DNA of 64,000 nucleotides, from the NCBI GenBank assembly GCA_016211945.1, contig JACRHV010000006.1, forward strand, positions 146,093 through 210,092, written 5' to 3'. Position numbers and translations under genes: made by a program. The notes under the pieces are model-generated. The model worked only from the letters and a program-made list of their open reading frames with translations, was not told where the DNA came from and did no database searches. Positions within the stretch are counted from its first letter, which is position 1; every line of letters starts with the position of its first letter. Below, piece after piece: positions 6,029-64,000 of the stretch. This stretch comes from Minisyncoccota bacterium (GTDB lineage: Bacteria > Patescibacteriota > Microgenomatia > UBA1400 > UBA12028).

Positions 6029-7513
6029 TTATGGTGTCGCAGGCGACGTTGCCGTTATTTCAGCTGCCGGTGTTACCACTTGTGACTCCAACGGAATCAA
6101 TCGAATCGACGCAACGGAGTTCACGGTCATCGGTATTACGATCCTCAACTCAGCAGAAGTAGTAGACACTTCTTGCCTATCGTTTCTTCCATCCAAAAAT
6201 TGTTGGTCCACAACAAATCGTGATCCAACAACATTGCGAAATGTTACAGGAACATTCTCGTTATGTTTTCCTGCGGGATCGTAGTTTGCCAAAACAACAG
6301 TTGTCGTGTCACCGGATCGTGCGGCCATTCCCTTTACCCAGCTTCCCTTTCCCAAAATAGGCAAGCGTTGGTTTCCAATACCATCAATCATGCGAAGTGC
6401 GCGATATCGAGGTTTCACTTTTGCGCCAAAGTCTTTGTGTGTAAACAACCCCCATCTCCCCCAATACTCCTTTCCCTCCGGGCCTTTCCCATCTTGGATC
6501 TCAAATACAAATCCGCGCTGAATTTGTCCCACCATCTCGGTTGCAACCGCAGCAGTATGTGCCGCACCAAAAATACCGTCGTACCCAAAATCAACCTCAG
6601 AGTCGTGTCCCCATTCTGTAATATGAAACTCCACGTTTGCGAACTGCGGGAACGACGCAACCCAGTTTTGAATATCGCGAAAGTCCCGGCGGTACGCGTC
6701 AATATCGCGTGCGTACCGATGCCAGGAAAGAAAATCCAAGCGCAAGTTGTTTTTACTCACATGATCCAAAAGCTCAGTGATCCAGTTTTTGTATAAACCG
6801 GTTGTTGCGGGTCCACCAAACGTAAATGTTTTTGCGCCGTTTGCCGCAGCCTGTTGCGCACCACGGGAGGCGTAGGTATACAGTGTTAAGTAATTTTTTG
6901 AACTCCCAATTCTCCATTTTCCAAACAAGTCTGGCTCGTTCCACACTTCATATGCGACATTCTCAATTCCACGATCCTTACTAAAATGCTCAACGGTGCG
7001 CTGGATAACCTGTTGGTACTCGTTCCAGTTCGAAGGTTGGCCTACAATGTCGCCACTTGGCGCAAGAACAGATGGAGTATATGACAAAGCGATGTACGGT
7101 TTTGCTCCGGTATTCAAAATATCGGTCACAACAGCGTCCATTTTTGTCCAGTTGTATTGGAGTCCGCCATTTCCACCACGCGACACAATGTCAAAAAAAT
7201 CGTAGATGTGATCGATGCGAATATACTCCGGCTGAAGTGCTTTCACTTGTGCGACGAGTGGCTGGAGTCTCCAATCTTTATCTTCCCCTCCTTGTGCAAG
7301 GTTGCGCCACGGTCTCGGCATAGGGCCTAAAATTGCCTGTGTATCAATGGAAATATTCGCCTCTTCACCAGAGGCCCCAATAAAAAGATCGCGAATAGTA
7401 CTCAGATTGGACACCCCAATAAAAATGCTCACAGTTAAAAGGATGATAGGAATAAGAGTAAAGATTGTTTTTCTTAGGTAGGTTTGACGATGTTTAGCTG
7501 CGGCAGTTGGCAT
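6029..7513 (-). CDS. Membrane-anchored glycoside hydrolase, GH39-like (clan GH-A)
   Basis: N-terminal TM; YEVWNEPD acid/base, LDFLSWH.Y, ITEWG nucleophile. Confidence 0.8.
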   Translation of the reverse strand: MPTAAAKHRQTYLRKTIFTLIPIILLTVSIFIGVSNLSTIRDLFIGASGEEANISIDTQAILGPMPRPWRNLAQGGEDKDWRLQPLVAQVKALQPEYIRIDHIYDFFDIVSRGGNGGLQYNWTKMDAVVTDILNTGAKPYIALSYTPSVLAPSGDIVGQPSNWNEYQQVIQRTVEHFSKDRGIENVAYEVWNEPDLFGKWRIGSSKNYLTLYTYASRGAQQAAANGAKTFTFGGPATTGLYKNWITELLDHVSKNNLRLDFLSWHRYARDIDAYRRDFRDIQNWVASFPQFANVEFHITEWGHDSEVDFGYDGIFGAAHTAAVATEMVGQIQRGFVFEIQDGKGPEGKEYWGRWGLFTHKDFGAKVKPRYRALRMIDGIGNQRLPILGKGSWVKGMAARSGDTTTVVLANYDPAGKHNENVPVTFRNVVGSRFVVDQQFLDGRNDRQEVSTTSAELRIVIPMTVNSVASIRLIPLESQVVTPAAEITATSPATP

Positions 7514-10887: not shown

Positions 10888-11748
10888 GTGAGCAAACGCG
10901 ACTTCTACGACGTCCTCGGTGTTTCTAAGTCTGCCTCTCAAGCGGAGATTAAAGCCGCGTATAGAAAGCTCGCATTGCAGTACCATCCGGATCGCAACAA
11001 AGCATCAGATGCGGAAACAAAATTCAAGGAAGTAAACGAGGCGTACCAAGTCTTAGGTGACGAGAAAAAACGCGAACAATACAACCAATTTGGTCATAAT
11101 GCTTTTGATCCTAACAGCGGTTTTGGTGGCGGCAATCCATTTTCCGGCGGATTTCAGCAAGGGCCGTTTACCTATCAATACAGTTCAAGTGGGGGAAACC
11201 CATTTGGCGGATTTGATTTTGGACAAGGTGGCGATCCGTTTGAAATTTTTGAGAGTTTCTTTGGCGGCAATCCGTTTGGCGGGCGCGCACAGCGTAAACC
11301 TCGATACACACTCACTGTCTCTTTTATGGACGCGGCAAAAGGTGCCGAGAAAGCCGTTTCTATTGAAGGGAAAAAACATACTATAAAGATCCCGGCGGGT
11401 GCGGATGACGGGACGCGCATTCGATTTTCCGAGTTTGATATTACCTTGGACGTGAAACCCGATGCTGTGTTTAGGCGCGATGGGTATGATGTCTATGTCG
11501 ATCAGGAAATTCCATTAACCACCGCGATCTTGGGAGGAATGGTTGACGTTCCCACCCTGGATGGTCCTTTGACGTTGAAGGTGCGGCCGGGGACACAGCC
11601 GAACACCATGGTCCGCCTTCGCGAGCAAGGTATTCAATATCTCCAGCGGAGAGCAAAAGGCGACCAGTATATTCGCTTGATCGTAAAAATTCCGGAAAAA
11701 CTTTCTCGTCAACAAAAAGAATTGATCGAGGAATTGGCGAGGTTATAG
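10888..11748 (+). CDS. dnaJ: J-domain co-chaperone, class B (DnaJ/CbpA-like, no zinc finger)
   Basis: J domain with HPD, G/F-rich linker, C-terminal domain; no CxxCxGxG repeats. Confidence 0.9.
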
Positions 11749-12405
11749 CACCCCCCTTTCTTTCATCGAGACATACCCTTGTTTTGCCAAAATAATGTGG
11801 TCAGAAAACTCGATTCCAAAGAGTTCAGCTGCCTGCTTGATCCGTGTAGTAAAGATTTTGTCATCCTCAGACGGTTCCGGTACTCCGGACGGATGATTAT
11901 GTGCCAGCACAATCGCAGCCACCGGGAGTCCCGCAATCGGAATAAACACGTCGCGCGGATGGATCAATGTTTGGTTGAGCGATCCTACCGCCACCACCTC
12001 CCGATGCACCAGCTGATACCGTGCGTTCAAATACAAACAAATCAACTGCTCGCGTTTTGACTGCTGGAGATCATGCAGATACGACGCAATAACTCCCGGC
12101 GAGGTAAACACCGTCTCGTTCCGGCGTTGGAATCGATCCATGAGTTCAAAGATCGCCAAAAGTTGCACAGCCTTTGTTTGGCCAATTCCCCTGATGCACA
12201 AAAATTTTTCTAACGATAACTCACTACGCGATGTGGAGTACAAGAGGTGTTCCAATGATCGCGCCACCTTCTCCACAGGAGTTCCGAGTATGCCGTTTCC
12301 CAAAATCACCATTAATAGTTCATGTGTAGACAAAATTTGTGCGCCACGAGCCACGAGTTTTTCTCGCGGGCGGGATCGTATCGGCAAGGCGTGAAGTAAA
12401 GTCAT
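11743..12405 (-). CDS. radC: RadC family JAB-domain protein
   Basis: RPREKL...G...LS..ELL N-terminus; HPRDVF; HNHPSG...PS..D JAB motif. Confidence 0.93.
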
Positions 12406-12408
12406 GCG

Positions 12409-12756
12409 CTACATCGTAGCGCACAAATCTTTCAATAACCTTACAAAATGTGAACTGCTCTCACAGTACACGGAACGCTTGGGCAACATATGCCGTTTCC
12501 CTTCGAATCCAATCGCGATAATCGGAACATCCGCCCACCCGGATTTTTGATCGATCACATCAAAAAATGTGCAAACTTCGAACATCGGTAACGATTCTTC
12601 AATAACTATGAGTGAAAATGGATTCATCACAAGTTGCAGTAATGCCTCTGTGATGCTTTTTGTCGGAATCAATTCATACTCTGCTTGCATCGCAGATTGA
12701 TGGTATAATCTTCTGAGACGAGAGTTTTGACTGATAAATAAAACTTGAGGAAGCAT
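12409..12756 (-). CDS. Degenerate response-regulator receiver-like protein
   Basis: Receiver-like pattern (EAL..L....FSLIVIEESLP, W.DVPIIAI) with the phospho-Asp position as Glu. Confidence 0.55.
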   Translation of the reverse strand: MLPQVLFISQNSRLRRLYHQSAMQAEYELIPTKSITEALLQLVMNPFSLIVIEESLPMFEVCTFFDVIDQKSGWADVPIIAIGFEGKRHMLPKRSVYCESSSHFVRLLKDLCATM

Positions 12757-45306: not shown

Positions 45307-47160
45307 ATGACTCCAAATCAGTTGCGCGCAACCTACATCAAGTTTTTTGTTGATCGTGGACATGTTGAAATCCCCTCCGCCTCCTTGGTTCCGGAAAATG
45401 ATCCCACGACCCTATTCACCAGTTCTGGGATGCAACCACTTGTTCCCTACCTCCTCGGGCAGTCCCACCCCTCGGGGAAAAAATTAGTTGACTCACAAAA
45501 GAGCTTTCGGTCACAGGATATTGAGGAAGTGGGCGACAATAGACACACCACATTTTTTGAGATGCTTGGGAACTGGTCGCTCGGTGAATACTTCAAAAAA
45601 GAACAACTTGCATGGTTTTTCGAGTTCCTCACAAAAGAAATCAGACTTGATCCCAACCGCCTCTTTGTGACGGTCTTCGCGGGAAACCCCGCAGTTCCCC
45701 GTGACATAGACTCGGTAGGAATCTGGAAATCACTTTTTTCGTCCGCCAACATACAAGCAAAAGACGTTGAGGATGCCGAGAATAAGGGTATGCAGGGTGG
45801 CCGTATCTTTTACTACGGTGAAAAGAAAAATTGGTGGTCGCGATCTGGCGTTCCGTCGGCGATGCCTGCGGGTGAACCGGGTGGACCAGACAGTGAAATA
45901 TTTTACGATTTTGGTGCGGAACTTCAACTCCACGAAACCTCGCAGTTCGCACATCAAGACTGTCACGTGAACTGCGACTGCGGCCGGTTCATGGAGATTG
46001 GAAACAGTGTATTCATGCAATATCAAAAACAGGCGGATGGATCGTTCAAAGAACTACCACAGAAGAATGTGGATTTTGGCGGTGGATTCGAACGCATTCT
46101 CGCAGCGATGGATAACACACTTGATGTATTCACCACCGATCTTTTTCGTCCAATTCTTACCACAATAGAAGAAATTTCGCACATATCGTATGATGGCAAA
46201 CACAAGCGCAACTTCCGTATTATTGCCGACCATGTTCGTGCCTCGGTCATGTTAGCGGCTGATGGTGTTGTGCCATCGAACAAAGAACAAGGCTACGTAT
46301 TGCGCCGGCTAATTCGCAGAGCAGTTCGGTTTGGCAAGCTACTCGGCATTCAAATCCCATTCATATTAGAAGTTGCGCAGTCGGTGATTGATCAATACAA
46401 GGAAATATACTCGGACGTTGGAGAAAATTCCGCTGCAATTCTCAGCACGCTCCAAGAAGAAGAACAAAAATTTGGCAAAACGATCACCAAAGGACTCAAA
46501 GAAATTGAAAAAGTTCCAACACTCAATGGTGAGATCGCGTTTACGCTCTATGAGACCTATGGTTTTCCATTCGAGTTAACCGAGGAAATTGCCCGAGAGC
46601 GCGGGCAACAGGTGGAGTATGGAACATTCCGCAAAGCATTTGAAAAACACCAAGAGCTTTCTCGTACCACGTCCAAAGGAATGTTTAAGGGTGGGCTTGC
46701 GGATCATTCTGAAATAGTGACAAAATATCACACCGCAACACACCTTCTTCATGCCGCACTCCGTGAGGTATTAGGAAAACATGTTACACAGCAAGGCTCA
46801 AATCTCACGGCAGAACGGTTGCGGTTTGATTTTTCGCACCCCCAACCATTAACAGAAGATCAAAAGAAAAAAGTTGAGTCGATCATCAATGAAAAAATTG
46901 CAGATGCTCTTCCGGTCACACCACAGTTCATGAAAAAAGACGAGGCATTGGCACAGGGAGCACTCGCATTTTTCCAAGAAAAATATGGAGACACCGTTTC
47001 TGTGTATACCATTGGACATGATCCGGAAAAAGATTGGTATTCAAAGGAGTTGTGTGGTGGGCCGCATGTTAAAAATACACAAGACATTGGAAAAATGAAG
47101 ATTACAAAAGAAGAGTCTATTGGATCTGGGAAGAGACGTATTTATCTCCAACTGGCTTAA
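45307..47160 (+). CDS. alaS: Alanyl-tRNA synthetase (lacks C-Ala domain)
   Basis: DPTTLFT..GM, H.TFFEMLGNWS, GY.LRRLIRRA, HTATHLL, RFDF.H, ELCGG.HV, G.RRI at the very end. Confidence 0.97.
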   Translation: MTPNQLRATYIKFFVDRGHVEIPSASLVPENDPTTLFTSSGMQPLVPYLLGQSHPSGKKLVDSQKSFRSQDIEEVGDNRHTTFFEMLGNWSLGEYFKKEQLAWFFEFLTKEIRLDPNRLFVTVFAGNPAVPRDIDSVGIWKSLFSSANIQAKDVEDAENKGMQGGRIFYYGEKKNWWSRSGVPSAMPAGEPGGPDSEIFYDFGAELQLHETSQFAHQDCHVNCDCGRFMEIGNSVFMQYQKQADGSFKELPQKNVDFGGGFERILAAMDNTLDVFTTDLFRPILTTIEEISHISYDGKHKRNFRIIADHVRASVMLAADGVVPSNKEQGYVLRRLIRRAVRFGKLLGIQIPFILEVAQSVIDQYKEIYSDVGENSAAILSTLQEEEQKFGKTITKGLKEIEKVPTLNGEIAFTLYETYGFPFELTEEIARERGQQVEYGTFRKAFEKHQELSRTTSKGMFKGGLADHSEIVTKYHTATHLLHAALREVLGKHVTQQGSNLTAERLRFDFSHPQPLTEDQKKKVESIINEKIADALPVTPQFMKKDEALAQGALAFFQEKYGDTVSVYTIGHDPEKDWYSKELCGGPHVKNTQDIGKMKITKEESIGSGKRRIYLQLA

Positions 47161-47390
47161 TTGCGAGCACGTTGTTCTACAACACTAAGTCGTGTTTCAT
47201 GATTTTCAACAACGTCTTGTAACTCGCTGACGTGGTGAACAGTAACAATGTGGTCTTCTTGAAGTGGATGAAGTTCTGCGAGAATTTCATCTTTAAACTT
47301 TGCCATATCACTTAAGAGCGACTGTCGCACTTCTGCGAATTTTTCATCAAATATATCCTTTATAATCTGTACATCACGTTTTGTGAGCAT
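47157..47390 (-). CDS. Small coiled-coil hypothetical protein
   Basis: SD AGGAGG; MLT..D...I and HE.R...VE pattern. Confidence 0.7.
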   Translation of the reverse strand: MLTKRDVQIIKDIFDEKFAEVRQSLLSDMAKFKDEILAELHPLQEDHIVTVHHVSELQDVVENHETRLSVVEQRARN

Positions 47391-47565
47391 AGTACCTCCT
47401 ACTTTAACAAGATCTCATCGCTCTTTCAACGAGATCTTACTTGTCGAATATGTATCGCTATAGTACAAACAGAACCTTACAATTACCTTACAAAAACATA
47501 ACTGCTCCTTATGTAGTCAAAGAGACTTTAAACTTGAGGCAGAACCTTCTATACTGTTTGTATAT

Positions 47566-56516: not shown

Positions 56517-56588
56517 ATGATATTCACGATGGAGCTCCGCCATGTACAAGTTACGGCGGGCGCTCTTCTCCCAGAATTTTCTGCATAA
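56517..56588 (+). CDS. Candidate leaderless erm leader peptide (MIFTMELRHVQVTAGALLPEFSA)
   Basis: ATG 8 nt after TGaTATAAT; out-of-frame overlap with the erm start; M5/L7/R8 match ErmDL positions. Confidence 0.5.
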   Translation: MIFTMELRHVQVTAGALLPEFSA

Positions 56589-57321
56589 CCACAAGCTGGT
56601 TTCTTCCCTTGTTGGACGTTCTTCTGTTGGCAAACATGATCTGGTTCTCGAGATTGGGTCAGGCAAGGGAATAATCACCTTCGAGTTAGCCCAGCGGGTT
56701 GGGCATGTGATCGCGGTGGAGATAGATGCACATTGGTATCAGTATCTCCAGGAGAAATTAGAAAATCTGTCAAACGTTACGGTCTATAGGCAGGATTTTC
56801 TCGAGTTTACGCTTCCGCGTTTACCATATAAAGTGTTTGCAAACATTCCGTTTGCGATCGAGGGGAAGGTGGTTCGAAAATTGTTAGAAGACGCTAACCC
56901 GCCGTATGATTGCTATCTCGTGGTGATGAAGGAGTTGGCGCAGCGGTTTTGCATGGGCCACACCATGTTTTCTGCGATGCACAGTCCATGGTTTGATTTT
57001 TCGATCGCGCATTATTTTGATCGGTGCGATTTTACTCCCATGCCGAACGTTGATGCGGTACTTCTGCGTATTGTTCAAAAAAGTATGCTGCTTTTGCCAT
57101 GGCAAGAAAGAAAACGATATATGCGATTCATTCAAACAGCGTTTTGTGACGGGCAAGCAGTGCGGCATAACCTCAAAAGGATAGTTTCACTGGAAAAGAT
57201 CGATCATGCGCTCCATTCTATGTCGCTGAGGAGAAATATACGGCCAGCGGACTTAACGCAGGAGCAATGGAGAAGATTATACGAAGCACTTTATGATTTT
57301 TCCGGTCGTTCAACTGACTGA
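56542..57321 (+). CDS. erm: Erm-like 23S rRNA adenine-N6 methyltransferase
   Basis: SQNFL, VLEIGSGKG.IT, DFL.F.LP..PYKVFANIPF, F.P.P.VD.VLL, L..EQW..L. Confidence 0.8.
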   Translation: MYKLRRALFSQNFLHNHKLVSSLVGRSSVGKHDLVLEIGSGKGIITFELAQRVGHVIAVEIDAHWYQYLQEKLENLSNVTVYRQDFLEFTLPRLPYKVFANIPFAIEGKVVRKLLEDANPPYDCYLVVMKELAQRFCMGHTMFSAMHSPWFDFSIAHYFDRCDFTPMPNVDAVLLRIVQKSMLLLPWQERKRYMRFIQTAFCDGQAVRHNLKRIVSLEKIDHALHSMSLRRNIRPADLTQEQWRRLYEALYDFSGRSTD

Positions 57322-60609: not shown

Positions 60610-60617
60610 ATTTTCTG

Positions 60618-60704
60618 CGGAGAGGGTGGGATTTGAACCCACGGTATGCTTGCGCACACAGAGCTTTTCGAGAGCTCCGCACTAGACCACTATGCGACCT
60701 CTCC
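60618..60704 (-). tRNA. tRNA-Ser(CGA)
   Basis: Minus strand GGAGAGG...GAGCT-CTCGAAA-AGCTC, long variable arm, GGTTCAAATCC, CCTCTCC-G. Confidence 0.95.
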
Positions 60705-60815
60705 CTTTCTTATGCAAGGTGGTCTGCGAATGCATCACCTTGCGTGAGCGAAACAATCTCATGCAAGCAAAAATGATGTCTTTTTGCGAAGCATGATGAT
60801 TGATGAGCGAACCTG

Positions 60816-60887
60816 TGCCTCCATGTGGAATCGAACCACAACCCCAAGCTCCGCAAGCTCGTATTCTATCCATTGAACTATGGAGGC
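60816..60887 (-). tRNA. tRNA-Arg(GCG)
   Basis: Minus strand GCCTCCA...CGAGC-TTGCGGA-GCTTG...GGTTCGATTCC...TGGAGGC-A. Confidence 0.92.
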
Positions 60888-61846: not shown

Positions 61847-63703
61847 CTACACTTGATCCATCAGCGCTTGAATACTCTGCGCGTATTCTCCATGAACCTG
61901 AACAGTGTGTTTCATATTTTCTATCATCATGAAGAAATGTTCTGGATGGATACAAGAAAATTGATGCATATGTTCCTCCGCAGTATCCAGCGCCCTCATG
62001 ATCCGTTTGTGCATAACGTAAAACGTTGTTGTCCAGAATATTTCTGTATACACTTCCTGTGTTTGAGTGTGCGCATGAAGGAGAATATGTCGAACAACCT
62101 CCGTATATTTTTTTGCACGGAGATCCTCTTCCCAATCGTGCATATCGTCTTGCAGTTGTCTCGCTTTGAGGTAATGCCAAAAAAATGATCGAACATGCCG
62201 CTGTTCTTTTTCTGTCTGTGCAACATTGAAATATCGCAAAACGGCAAAGCATCCGAGTGAAGCACTGAATGATCGTTGCACCGATGTTTGAATGTCAATA
62301 GTCCGTGCGTTTTGTGCAATGATATGTGCGTTTTCACAGTGTTGTATCATATCCTCCATCATTCGTAAAAAGGAAGGATCACTTGAAAAATACTGCGCAT
62401 AAAAAGACTGCGATTGGCGAAGAAACCAAATAATGTCATGGAACGTATCAAGTCGTGTATTTTCTTGATCAATAAGGTCATCAAGTAATGTGTACGCAAT
62501 CCATCCAAAGAGTTGTGCACAACCAAACGCGGAGAGTACTGTAAGCGCATGCGAATCAATATCCGTTTGTACGGTTGAAACATACAGTGTTGTAGGAAGC
62601 ATACATATTTCTTGGATAGGGATACGTTTCCACATCATCGAGATATCGTTTTCTAGTCGGATTCGGAGGTGTTTGGGAACTGTTTTGAGTATGGAGTGTA
62701 TGCGAAGTTTAATCGTGGAAATGATAATAGTATGTTGTGTTTGAGCTTTTTCAAAAAGAGATTGGTATAAAGATAACGCCTCCAAACAAAAAAGATCTGT
62801 TAGTAACGGCGATCCTGCGTAGGTAGTTTGAGATGATCGTTTTGTATTGAGGCAGACAATTCCACGACATTCTCTCTGTGCTTGTGTGCATAAGATTCGT
62901 ACATACGGCAACAAAGATTCATAATCTTTCCCTAATCTCATGAGAATAGTAAGGGAAAGCGCAAGACGATGTTTATCTCCCGGTGTGCGAAGGCTGTGTT
63001 CTATTTCAACAATAACGGTTGTAACAGCTTGAAAAACGCGCGGCAATTTTTGTACGGTATTTGGTAGAAGAGCATACATGCGCGCAAAGAAATAGTATGC
63101 AGAAAGAGGTGGGTAAAATTCCGAGTGAGTTTTTTGTGTTATCGACTGTATAACATACTCTAAACATGACTCCAATGTTATGTTCCAATATGAAAGAAGG
63201 TACAAAACGTTACACTGCACGACAAAATCAACAGTATTCCAAACAGGATTGTTATTGCCCACAATCCATGTTTTGTATGGACCTCCAGGTTTTTCTTCTA
63301 GTGCAAAAAGAAGTTGAAGTAAGCGAGCAAGGAGGTTTGAAGGTTTTTGTATATGCGAATAAAGAAATAGTGCATGCCATGCACAAGCCGTATCATCAAT
63401 GTCATCAGGATATTCATGCGTAGGCGATGTACTATTCCACCAATTGTATGTCTCCGTTGTTTCATTTCTTTGTTGATAAAGCCAAGAAGATAAACGATCA
63501 CAAAGTGAAAAAAGACGACTATCATGTTGCATTGTACTGAGCGGACTAAGGATTTCTAATGCGATTGTTAATGGAAAAATGACGGGAAGATGACTGATTG
63601 GAATATTTTTTGAGGAAAGACTTTCACACTCGCAAAATTTTTCTATCGGTGTATTGAGAATCAAGTTGAGTAGAGCGCTGATTGTTTTTTTGACGTAGAA
63701 CAT
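61847..63703 (-). CDS. Fusion of class II terpene cyclase beta domain and class I isoprenoid synthase-like domain
   Basis: YPDDIDDTA (DxDD), D.VV..NVL, S.FY..P...YFF.R; C-terminal LLDDLID (DDxxD) and RQLQDDMHDWEEDL. Confidence 0.75.
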   Translation of the reverse strand: MFYVKKTISALLNLILNTPIEKFCECESLSSKNIPISHLPVIFPLTIALEILSPLSTMQHDSRLFSLCDRLSSWLYQQRNETTETYNWWNSTSPTHEYPDDIDDTACAWHALFLYSHIQKPSNLLARLLQLLFALEEKPGGPYKTWIVGNNNPVWNTVDFVVQCNVLYLLSYWNITLESCLEYVIQSITQKTHSEFYPPLSAYYFFARMYALLPNTVQKLPRVFQAVTTVIVEIEHSLRTPGDKHRLALSLTILMRLGKDYESLLPYVRILCTQAQRECRGIVCLNTKRSSQTTYAGSPLLTDLFCLEALSLYQSLFEKAQTQHTIIISTIKLRIHSILKTVPKHLRIRLENDISMMWKRIPIQEICMLPTTLYVSTVQTDIDSHALTVLSAFGCAQLFGWIAYTLLDDLIDQENTRLDTFHDIIWFLRQSQSFYAQYFSSDPSFLRMMEDMIQHCENAHIIAQNARTIDIQTSVQRSFSASLGCFAVLRYFNVAQTEKEQRHVRSFFWHYLKARQLQDDMHDWEEDLRAKKYTEVVRHILLHAHTQTQEVYTEIFWTTTFYVMHKRIMRALDTAEEHMHQFSCIHPEHFFMMIENMKHTVQVHGEYAQSIQALMDQV

Positions 63704-64000
63704 AATGTGTTTGAGGGATCGATAGAATAAATCGTGTCCCCTTTTGTGGTTTTGTTATAAAATGTATCGATCCATGGAATGATTGTTCGATACTTTCTTT
63801 TACCGTAGTAAGTCCAATCCCAGTTCCAATTGATGCCTTTTTTGTTGTGAAAAAAGGTTGAAAAATATTCTTTTTATTTTTAATAGAAATGCCATTAGCA
63901 AAGTCTTGTATTTCAATATGCAATTTTTTTGCAAAAATTTTTGCGAAAATACGGACAATCTTTTCCGCCATTGGTTTGTTTGGCACATCGTCATATGCTT
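63624..64000 (-). CDS. Sensor histidine kinase, C-terminal HATPase domain (5' end outside window)
   Basis: I.D...GI, IF.PFFTTK, GTGIGL, G.I, GT.F...IP; overlaps the start of the terpene synthase gene by 80 nt. Confidence 0.9.
   Translation of the reverse strand, partial: AYDDVPNKPMAEKIVRIFAKIFAKKLHIEIQDFANGISIKNKKNIFQPFFTTKKASIGTGIGLTTVKESIEQSFHGSIHFITKPQKGTRFILSIPQTHYVLRQKNNQRSTQLDSQYTDRKILRV

Follow-up and report, generated by a model that had tools for sequence, protein, structure and literature searches.

The window, that is, the whole stretch of 64,000 nucleotides analysed here, comes from an organism described as an ultra-small bacterium (genome G000, 908 kb, scored 100% complete), which homologues of its genes assign to the Patescibacteria. 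Two overlapping genes on the minus strand lie at its end:

61847..63703, minus strand: bifunctional enzyme of 618 aa, predicted class II cyclase beta domain plus trans-IDS-fold prenyltransferase
63624..64000, minus strand: 3' part of a membrane histidine kinase gene, continuing beyond the window to G000:C3:211218 (window-equivalent 65126)

The start of the enzyme gene does lie, as the initial annotation had stated, within the 3' end of a HATPase_c gene on the same strand, the overlap being 63624-63703 (80 nt). All the motifs that it had quoted are found in the ORF, which carries YNWWNSTSPTHEYPDDIDDTA, DFVVQCNVL, SEFYPPLSAYYFFAR, AYTLLDDLID and QLQDDMHDWEED. The public gene call (P0001, 561 aa) begins at M58; homologues align from about M1, upstream of this start. 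Pfam, NCBIfam and a single-sequence PDB search all leave the enzyme unnamed. A profile search returned 1400 clusters (50% identity) at E<1e-30, and a homologue was confirmed in 354 GTDB stretches, the best-scoring 80 of which (not a random sample) were analysed as loci. Within the phylum, a real homologue occurs in 14 of the 401 sampled genomes, G000 counted in and three weak rows left out, and in two of the 13 other members of G000's own family.

Conservation was assessed in an alignment of 150 sequences, percentages being given over the 149 rows other than the window's enzyme. D101, D103 and D104 are kept in 99, 99 and 93% of these rows, and the transferase residues D408, D412, Q516, D519, D520, D523 and D527 in 98-99%. 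Judged from this alignment, the Asp motifs are conserved in homologues and the motif set is not due to chance. The window's enzyme is among the most diverged, matching 79 of 114 well-conserved columns and departing at 35 (family median 106); despite this divergence it keeps every catalytic Asp, and a relative with 68% identity has most of the same N-half substitutions.

The two domains of the enzyme

The two halves were looked at separately, which confirmed an (alpha/alpha)6 cyclase fold for the N-half and a class I isoprenoid fold for the C-half. Their features are as follows:

62753..63703, minus strand: cyclase domain (aa 1-317), an (alpha/alpha)6 toroid that most resembles the beta domain of the drimenol synthase AsDMS
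63389..63409, minus strand: PDDIDDT motif, aa 99-105, with D103 aligned with the AsDMS general acid D323
61898..62740, minus strand: prenyltransferase domain (aa 322-602) of trans-IDS fold, lacking both the RR loop after the FARM and the GGKR motif
62468..62482, minus strand: first Asp-rich motif DDLID, aa 408-412
62123..62158, minus strand: second Asp-rich motif QLQDDMHDWEED, aa 516-527

The N-half is a predicted class II cyclase of the AsDMS type, in agreement with the earlier suggestion of a single-beta cyclase resembling drimenol synthases; it has the (alpha/alpha)6 beta-domain fold of such enzymes, and a DxD(D/T) general-acid motif is present in 148 of the 149 rows. In AsDMS, according to the passages of PMC12232559 used here, D323 is the general acid, F271/F308/Y417 stabilise cations and R368/R370/R415 bind phosphate. 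By sequence alignment, the three aromatics correspond to F43/W88/Y197 of the enzyme. The diphosphate-binding Arg cluster is absent: R368, R370 and R415 are replaced by W155, T157 (D in the family) and E195 (P in the family), again by sequence alignment and not superposition, as would be expected if the cyclase substrate bears no diphosphate. Of the products first envisaged for the enzyme, a cyclic terpenoid or a prenylated peptide, the free terpenoid is the less supported, because these phosphate-holding arginines are lacking. In two homologues, L033:7855-9594 (genome G192) and P0002, the cyclase DxDD is lost and the second Asp-rich motif of the transferase is retained; since G192 nevertheless has peptide, kinase and regulator, a linear-prenyl variant of the signal may exist.

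The C-half has the IDS fold with FARM and SARM that characterises chain-elongating trans-IDS and, among the matches listed, is closest to IDS and prenyltransferases. An RR loop after the FARM and an N-terminal GGKR are further motifs of chain-elongating trans-IDS; they are found in 0 of 141 and 0 of 150 members of the enzyme family, respectively. Of 17 true IDS genes in the neighbourhood, taken as a control, 13 have the RR loop. The second metal motif reads QxxDDxxD, and the NSE/DTE motif is not there; class I terpene cyclases combine DDxxD with NSE/DTE, as described in the passages of PMC12232559 used here. The original interpretation is partly supported: it stands for the class II cyclase and for the class I isoprenoid fold, but the label of class I terpene synthase is less supported, and the C-half is better described as a predicted IDS-fold prenyltransferase. 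Note that the Gln preceding the second Asp-rich motif occurs in ordinary IDS too and is thus no proof of Trp specificity.

Regarding the prenyl donor, neither HMG-CoA reductase nor GHMP kinase, nor any other mevalonate or MEP marker, was found in G000, and HMG-CoA reductase occurs in just 1 of the 14 carriers, against 23 of the 401 genomes overall. As G000 retains a polyprenyl synthase (IDS; G000:C1:156933-158024), IPP-level precursors are probably imported, and the donor is probably built from such scavenged material. A separate IDS lies within the cassette in 17 of the 80 loci, plus G212.

Kinase, precursor peptide and regulator

The kinase has 500 aa and about six hydrophobic segments; it lacks a large outside domain and keeps the H-box His. 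PF07730 is found in none of five kinases and a weak PF00512 in three. Its adjacency to the enzyme, on which the proposal of a coupled sensor had rested, is preserved: the kinase lies 5' on the same strand in 13/13 other carriers of the phylum sample and in 79 of the 80 GTDB loci, and the one remaining locus offers just 117 nt of upstream sequence. The length of the overlap varies (gaps mostly -100 to +70 nt). The gene order is regulator-peptide-kinase-enzyme, with an OmpR-type regulator directly upstream in 12 of 13 carriers (in G212 an IDS intervenes); in the GTDB set it is 5' in 66/80 loci and 3' on the opposite strand in four. Trees of kinase, enzyme and regulator (64 loci) have 15-24 of 19-38 supported splits in common. 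No conserved exporter or protease gene was found in the cassette across the 80 loci.

At one locus, a 240-aa ORF with a methyltransferase-like motif, possibly a tailoring enzyme, is placed between kinase and enzyme (L063:5119-5841). Genes named by reading their sequences also adjoin the cassette: a radC-like gene in 8/80 loci (L047, L054, L073, L075, L098, L083, L036, L053) and a Crp/Fnr-like regulator in 11/80.

Inspection beyond position 64000 revealed the rest of the kinase gene, a peptide gene and a promoter box. The small Trp-containing peptide gene whose existence the initial annotation had raised is thus present just past the window:

65071-65178 (window-equivalent; G000:C3:211163-211270), minus strand, beyond the window: uncalled 35-aa precursor peptide P0179, with a strong Shine-Dalgarno sequence and conserved L9, R15 and W33

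The regulator-kinase gaps contain a small ORF in nearly every locus, mostly with a strong ribosome-binding site (an SD-like site precedes 66 of 90 peptides). An HMM built from 64 seeds, the G000 copy being outside the seed, matched 88 of 94 loci (two of them included in duplicate) at E<0.01, in every case just 5' of the kinase; the six misses comprise three loci without upstream DNA, two weak scores with the Trp present and one locus without a usable start. The 90 peptides are 31-41 aa long; L9 and W33 are invariant, and 89 of them have R15. The conserved Trp is followed by 1-7 residues in 90/90, and the 2,938 positions preceding it are free of W. Because the seed rule had required a W, the HMM was rebuilt from the leader alone, and a W still lies within the last 8 residues in 90 of 91 matches (background 13%). 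P0179, for which Pfam and NCBIfam give no match, is the sole match among 16,485 small ORFs of G000 (E 1.8e-8). We also would like to point out a GGTCG(A) hexamer recurring about 25-60 nt 5' of the peptide start in loci with a separate promoter for the peptide (e.g. L072, L076, L077, L081, L084, L086, L095, L099, L102, L114).

The OmpR-type regulator is missing from the cassette locus of G000. This genome has one full OmpR-type regulator, standing alone at G000:C11:27454-28164; the only other kinase found in G000 is paired with a receiver-only protein, which leaves the cassette kinase as the one unpaired kinase found there, and the C11 orphan would be the candidate response regulator for it. 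In a quick tree this regulator belongs to a clade of orphans with long branches, which is separate from the cassette regulators and includes syntenic orphans of the relatives G406, G407 and G408. G406 has both orphan and cassette regulators and a cassette promoter without a clear box; in G407, box, orphan regulator and a sensor-less kinase are present, and neither peptide nor enzyme was found. Given this separate clade, the two kinds of regulator in G406 and the situation in G407, we can only infer which regulator reads the box and whether the cassette kinase feeds it. The G407 kinase (L280:3003-4040) is of the cassette type, lacks the membrane sensor and lies behind a strong box; it is possibly a signal-independent form.

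Promoter boxes and competence genes

The main addition of the present analysis is a competence regulon, of which the window and its immediate surroundings contain the following elements:

65238-65255 (window-equivalent), minus strand, beyond the window: cassette promoter box of G000, TTGTAAG-N4-TTGTAAG, with TAnnnT 10 nt later
12429..12446, minus strand: regulon box directly 5' of radC
11743..12405, minus strand: radC (RadC JAB + UPF0758_N), regulon member
47476..47493, minus strand: regulon box 5' of a 77-aa ORF (47157-47390, minus strand) that belongs to no known family

TTAAB-N6-TTAAB is found in 57 of 84 cassette promoters, whereas other spacings yield 1-5 and shuffled sequences 1.25 on average; an 11-bp repeat period is typical of OmpR-family sites. 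In G000, the box TTGTAAG-N4-TTGTAAG occurs 21 times against 0.03 expected (75 simulated genomes), its scores (30-39) being separated by a sharp gap from the rest (12.6), and TAnnnT follows after exactly 10 nt in 17 of the 21. Behind these boxes are comEA-comEC, comF, comM (YifB), dprA-topA, radC, a small ORF with recA, and rpsF-ssb, where the comEA and comF assignments fall under NCBIfam cut-offs and are consistent with position and domains. Further boxes precede genes for three secreted-looking proteins (lamin-tail, C39-like and unknown), several small ORFs and three tRNA-like RNAs, and two of the 21 have no clear target. Among relatives, boxes are located before comF and rpsF-ssb in G406, before recA, comF and the C39-like gene in G408, where the box of the cassette promoter is degenerate, and before recA in G409 (73% complete), in which the enzyme was not found.

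A canonical box precedes comEA, comF, comM or dprA in 14 of 44 regions from 13 carriers, but in 0 of 51 regions from 17 non-carriers. Thirteen of the 14 belong to one family (f33), in which the canonical cassette box itself stands before comEA, comM, dprA and comF, so that about three lineages, and not 14 events, are represented overall. No competence-gene box was found in six carriers (G145, G192, G212, G293, G317, G380), two of which (G380, G317) have few other boxes, before unrelated, non-competence genes. The competence link is therefore not universal among carriers.

Several further products of boxed loci in G000 are worth recording. Three related 75-nt RNAs (L127:363-440, L130:338-415, L118:352-432; contigs C3, C8, C14) start about 25 nt after a box and have a tRNA-like acceptor stem and T-arm; ARAGORN calls none of them, two of the three weakly match tmRNA ends in Rfam, and their fold z-scores range from -0.04 to -2.3. 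They are candidates for regulon-controlled tRNA-like sRNAs or integration-site remnants. A secreted-looking 609-aa protein (L117:269-2098; G000:C1:21068-22897), encoded behind a perfect box and with a boxed counterpart in G408, has a weak C39-like domain (E 8e-4, below cut-off) and is a candidate peptide-processing or sibling-lysis enzyme. Hydrophobic ORFs of 50-80 aa follow boxes directly (L116:282-497, L126:293-654, L121:3436-3660, L122:347-731); two are DUF6722 and one lies before recA.

Related systems, proposed circuit and alternatives

The cassette is real and conserved, a ComX-like system whose transferase is fused to a terpene cyclase, and the analogy drawn at the outset with ComQ and ComP was right. 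It works like the ComQXPA system of Bacillus subtilis and other Firmicutes, with which it shares an IDS-fold prenyltransferase, a short precursor with a Trp near the C-terminus, a polytopic kinase and a regulator, the last adjoining the others on the same strand in most relatives but not in G000, and competence as a proposed output; it nevertheless falls outside that family by the size and motif of the enzyme, the length of the precursor and the classes of kinase and regulator (reference features from the passages used here of PMC4008528 and of the StheQ preprint, bioRxiv 10.64898/2026.08.29.745113). The enzyme here, with 618 aa in two domains including a class II cyclase, is twice as long as single-domain ComQ (286-309 aa) and has DDxxD as second motif instead of the NDxxx pseudo-SARM; the precursor has 31-41 aa and not 52-73 aa (PF05952); the kinase is HisKA-like, unlike ComP (PF07730), and the regulator of OmpR type, unlike ComA (LuxR/GerE). 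The regulator-peptide-kinase-enzyme order (with the regulator non-adjacent in G000) and the box directly before late competence genes also set the cassette apart. According to the passages of PMC4008528 used here, a 2014 census found no ComQXPA outside Firmicutes. A Trp within 5-10 aa of the C-terminus, as in ComQXPA precursors, occurs in 90/90 peptides.

Of the RiPP maturases ChrPC and NctPC, for which Hubrich et al. 2024 is reportedly the primary paper on these prenyltransferase-cyclases, ChrPC shares the fusion of a trans-IDS-like domain with a class II cyclase and the chemistry proposed here. ChrPC, compared by description only, is presented in the passages of PMC13290415 used here as a trans-IDS-like domain prenylating an internal Trp (C10-C20), fused to a prenyl-cyclising domain; these passages call the NctPC cyclase MstE-like, whereas ours is closest to AsDMS, and are silent on a cognate two-component system, on a regulon and on Patescibacteria. 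In Paenibacillus alvei, PalP-PalX-PalQ, as described in the parts of PMC10853753 used here, likewise clusters kinase, peptide and IDS-like Trp prenyltransferase, and PalQ has the same Q-x-x-DDxxD register (Q197/D200/D204 versus Q516/D519/D523); in those parts it has no cyclase and no regulator, and PalX combines an NHLP leader with a Trp that is always the last residue, both lacking in the peptides described here, where 1-7 residues follow. The single-beta cyclases AsDMS and AstC (passages of PMC9128629 and PMC12232559; PDB 9MHS) share a homologous beta domain, the general-acid Asp and the cation-stabilising aromatics, but their partner domain is HAD and not IDS-fold, and they have the arginines R368/R370/R415 that are absent here. 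Leader-dependent peptide prenylation has a precedent in the passages of PMC12715784 used here. A description of the cassette was not found in the literature searched. The main text of a triterpenoid-cyclase survey (PMC12324236) does not mention CPR, and that of a CPR quorum-sensing census (PMC7567580) mentions neither ComQ, ComX, prenyl nor terpene. In Patescibacteria, com genes are conserved and natural transformation underlies their genetics; the passages of PMC10633639 reporting this say nothing on how transformation is regulated.

Taken together, the enzyme probably joins a terpene to a tiny Trp-bearing peptide and folds the terpene into rings, and the adjacent sensor appears to feed a regulator whose sites precede DNA-uptake genes, which suggests a pheromone switch for natural transformation. 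The 35-aa precursor would bind the enzyme via its conserved leader; the IDS-fold domain would use its Asp-rich motifs to ionise a C10-C20 prenyl diphosphate and would alkylate the invariant Trp, as fold, motifs and the analogy to ComQ, PalQ and ChrPC suggest; the N-terminal domain, with D103 protonating the chain end, would then cyclise the peptide-bound prenyl group. Given its near-invariant linkage, the adjacent kinase would sense the trimmed lipopeptide through its membrane domain and phosphorylate an OmpR-type regulator, cassette-borne in most relatives and presumably the C11 orphan in G000. By binding the 11-bp-period repeats, this regulator would activate the 21 promoters, including that of the cassette itself (positive feedback) and those of comEA-comEC, comF, comM, dprA, radC, recA and rpsF-ssb. 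The reading we favour, as a rather likely one, is that natural competence in the lineage of G000 is driven by a pheromone circuit like ComQXPA, extended by a terpene cyclase. More tentatively, and with chances somewhat under even, we propose a competence pheromone of Patescibacteria's own, in which a polycyclic terpene is built on the peptide Trp by one cyclase-prenyltransferase from host-derived isoprenoid precursors and, through a dedicated kinase and an OmpR regulator, directly induces the whole DNA-uptake and recombination set.

With the same chemistry, the modified peptide might instead remain in the producer's membrane and activate the cell's own kinase. Since the cell has to obtain its prenyl donors from the host, the circuit would then report host attachment or isoprenoid supply and switch competence accordingly. 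The lack of a conserved exporter or protease in the cassette, the missing mevalonate and MEP markers in G000, the scarcity of HMG-CoA reductase (1/14 carriers), sensing by the kinase within the membrane and a weak correlation between distances of peptide cores and sensors (rho 0.17) all fit this idea; however, ComQXPA likewise has no known dedicated exporter (passages of PMC4008528 used here), and promoter feedback and the variable sequence around the invariant Trp suit a pheromone, which leaves the idea rather unlikely. We consider it improbable that the enzyme acts on small molecules as a class II/class I terpene synthase, converting prenyl-PP via bicyclic-PP to a terpene or adduct that serves as ligand, with the peptide as an unmodified kinase modulator. 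AsDMS, the closest solved relative, does cyclise free FPP, and an IDS gene is often adjacent, but the AsDMS phosphate-binding arginines and the NSE/DTE motif are absent, the alpha domain is nearest to IDS and prenyltransferases among the matches listed, the near-terminal Trp invariant in 90/90 peptides would go unexplained, and G192, devoid of DxDD, still has peptide, kinase and regulator. There is equally little to recommend the view that the G000 cassette is just a downstream, perhaps decaying member of a competence regulon under an independent orphan regulator not controlled by the kinase: the absence of a regulator at the locus, the distinct orphan clade with G406 retaining a separate cassette regulator, the box of G407 without peptide or enzyme and the divergence of the G000 enzyme speak for it, but the peptide, the His and every catalytic Asp are intact and the box is perfect, the 68%-identical relative has most N-half substitutions too, no other unpaired kinase was found in G000, and comEA, comM, dprA and comF of f33 have the canonical cassette box itself in front of them.

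On the favoured pheromone reading, the locus offers a named precursor with its maturase and sensor, as well as a candidate regulator, a DNA box and 21 promoters as targets. The signal would be a cyclic-terpene peptide, and the enzymes would form a family, more than 1000 strong, of diverged cyclase-prenyltransferases for peptide lipidation. If the more tentative reading, with a pheromone of Patescibacteria's own made from host-derived precursors, is true, transformation in these epibionts would depend on kin density and host supply together, and a synthetic or heterologously made pheromone could trigger competence for genetics in uncultured lineages.

Note also two further features of the window on this side of the cassette. 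Just 3' of it, tRNA-Ser(CGA) and tRNA-Arg(GCG) are encoded on the minus strand (60617-60704 and 60815-60887; L034:6710-6797 and 6908-6980), and a 259-aa ORF at 56542-57321 resembles, on reading its sequence, an rRNA adenine dimethylase of the Erm/KsgA family.
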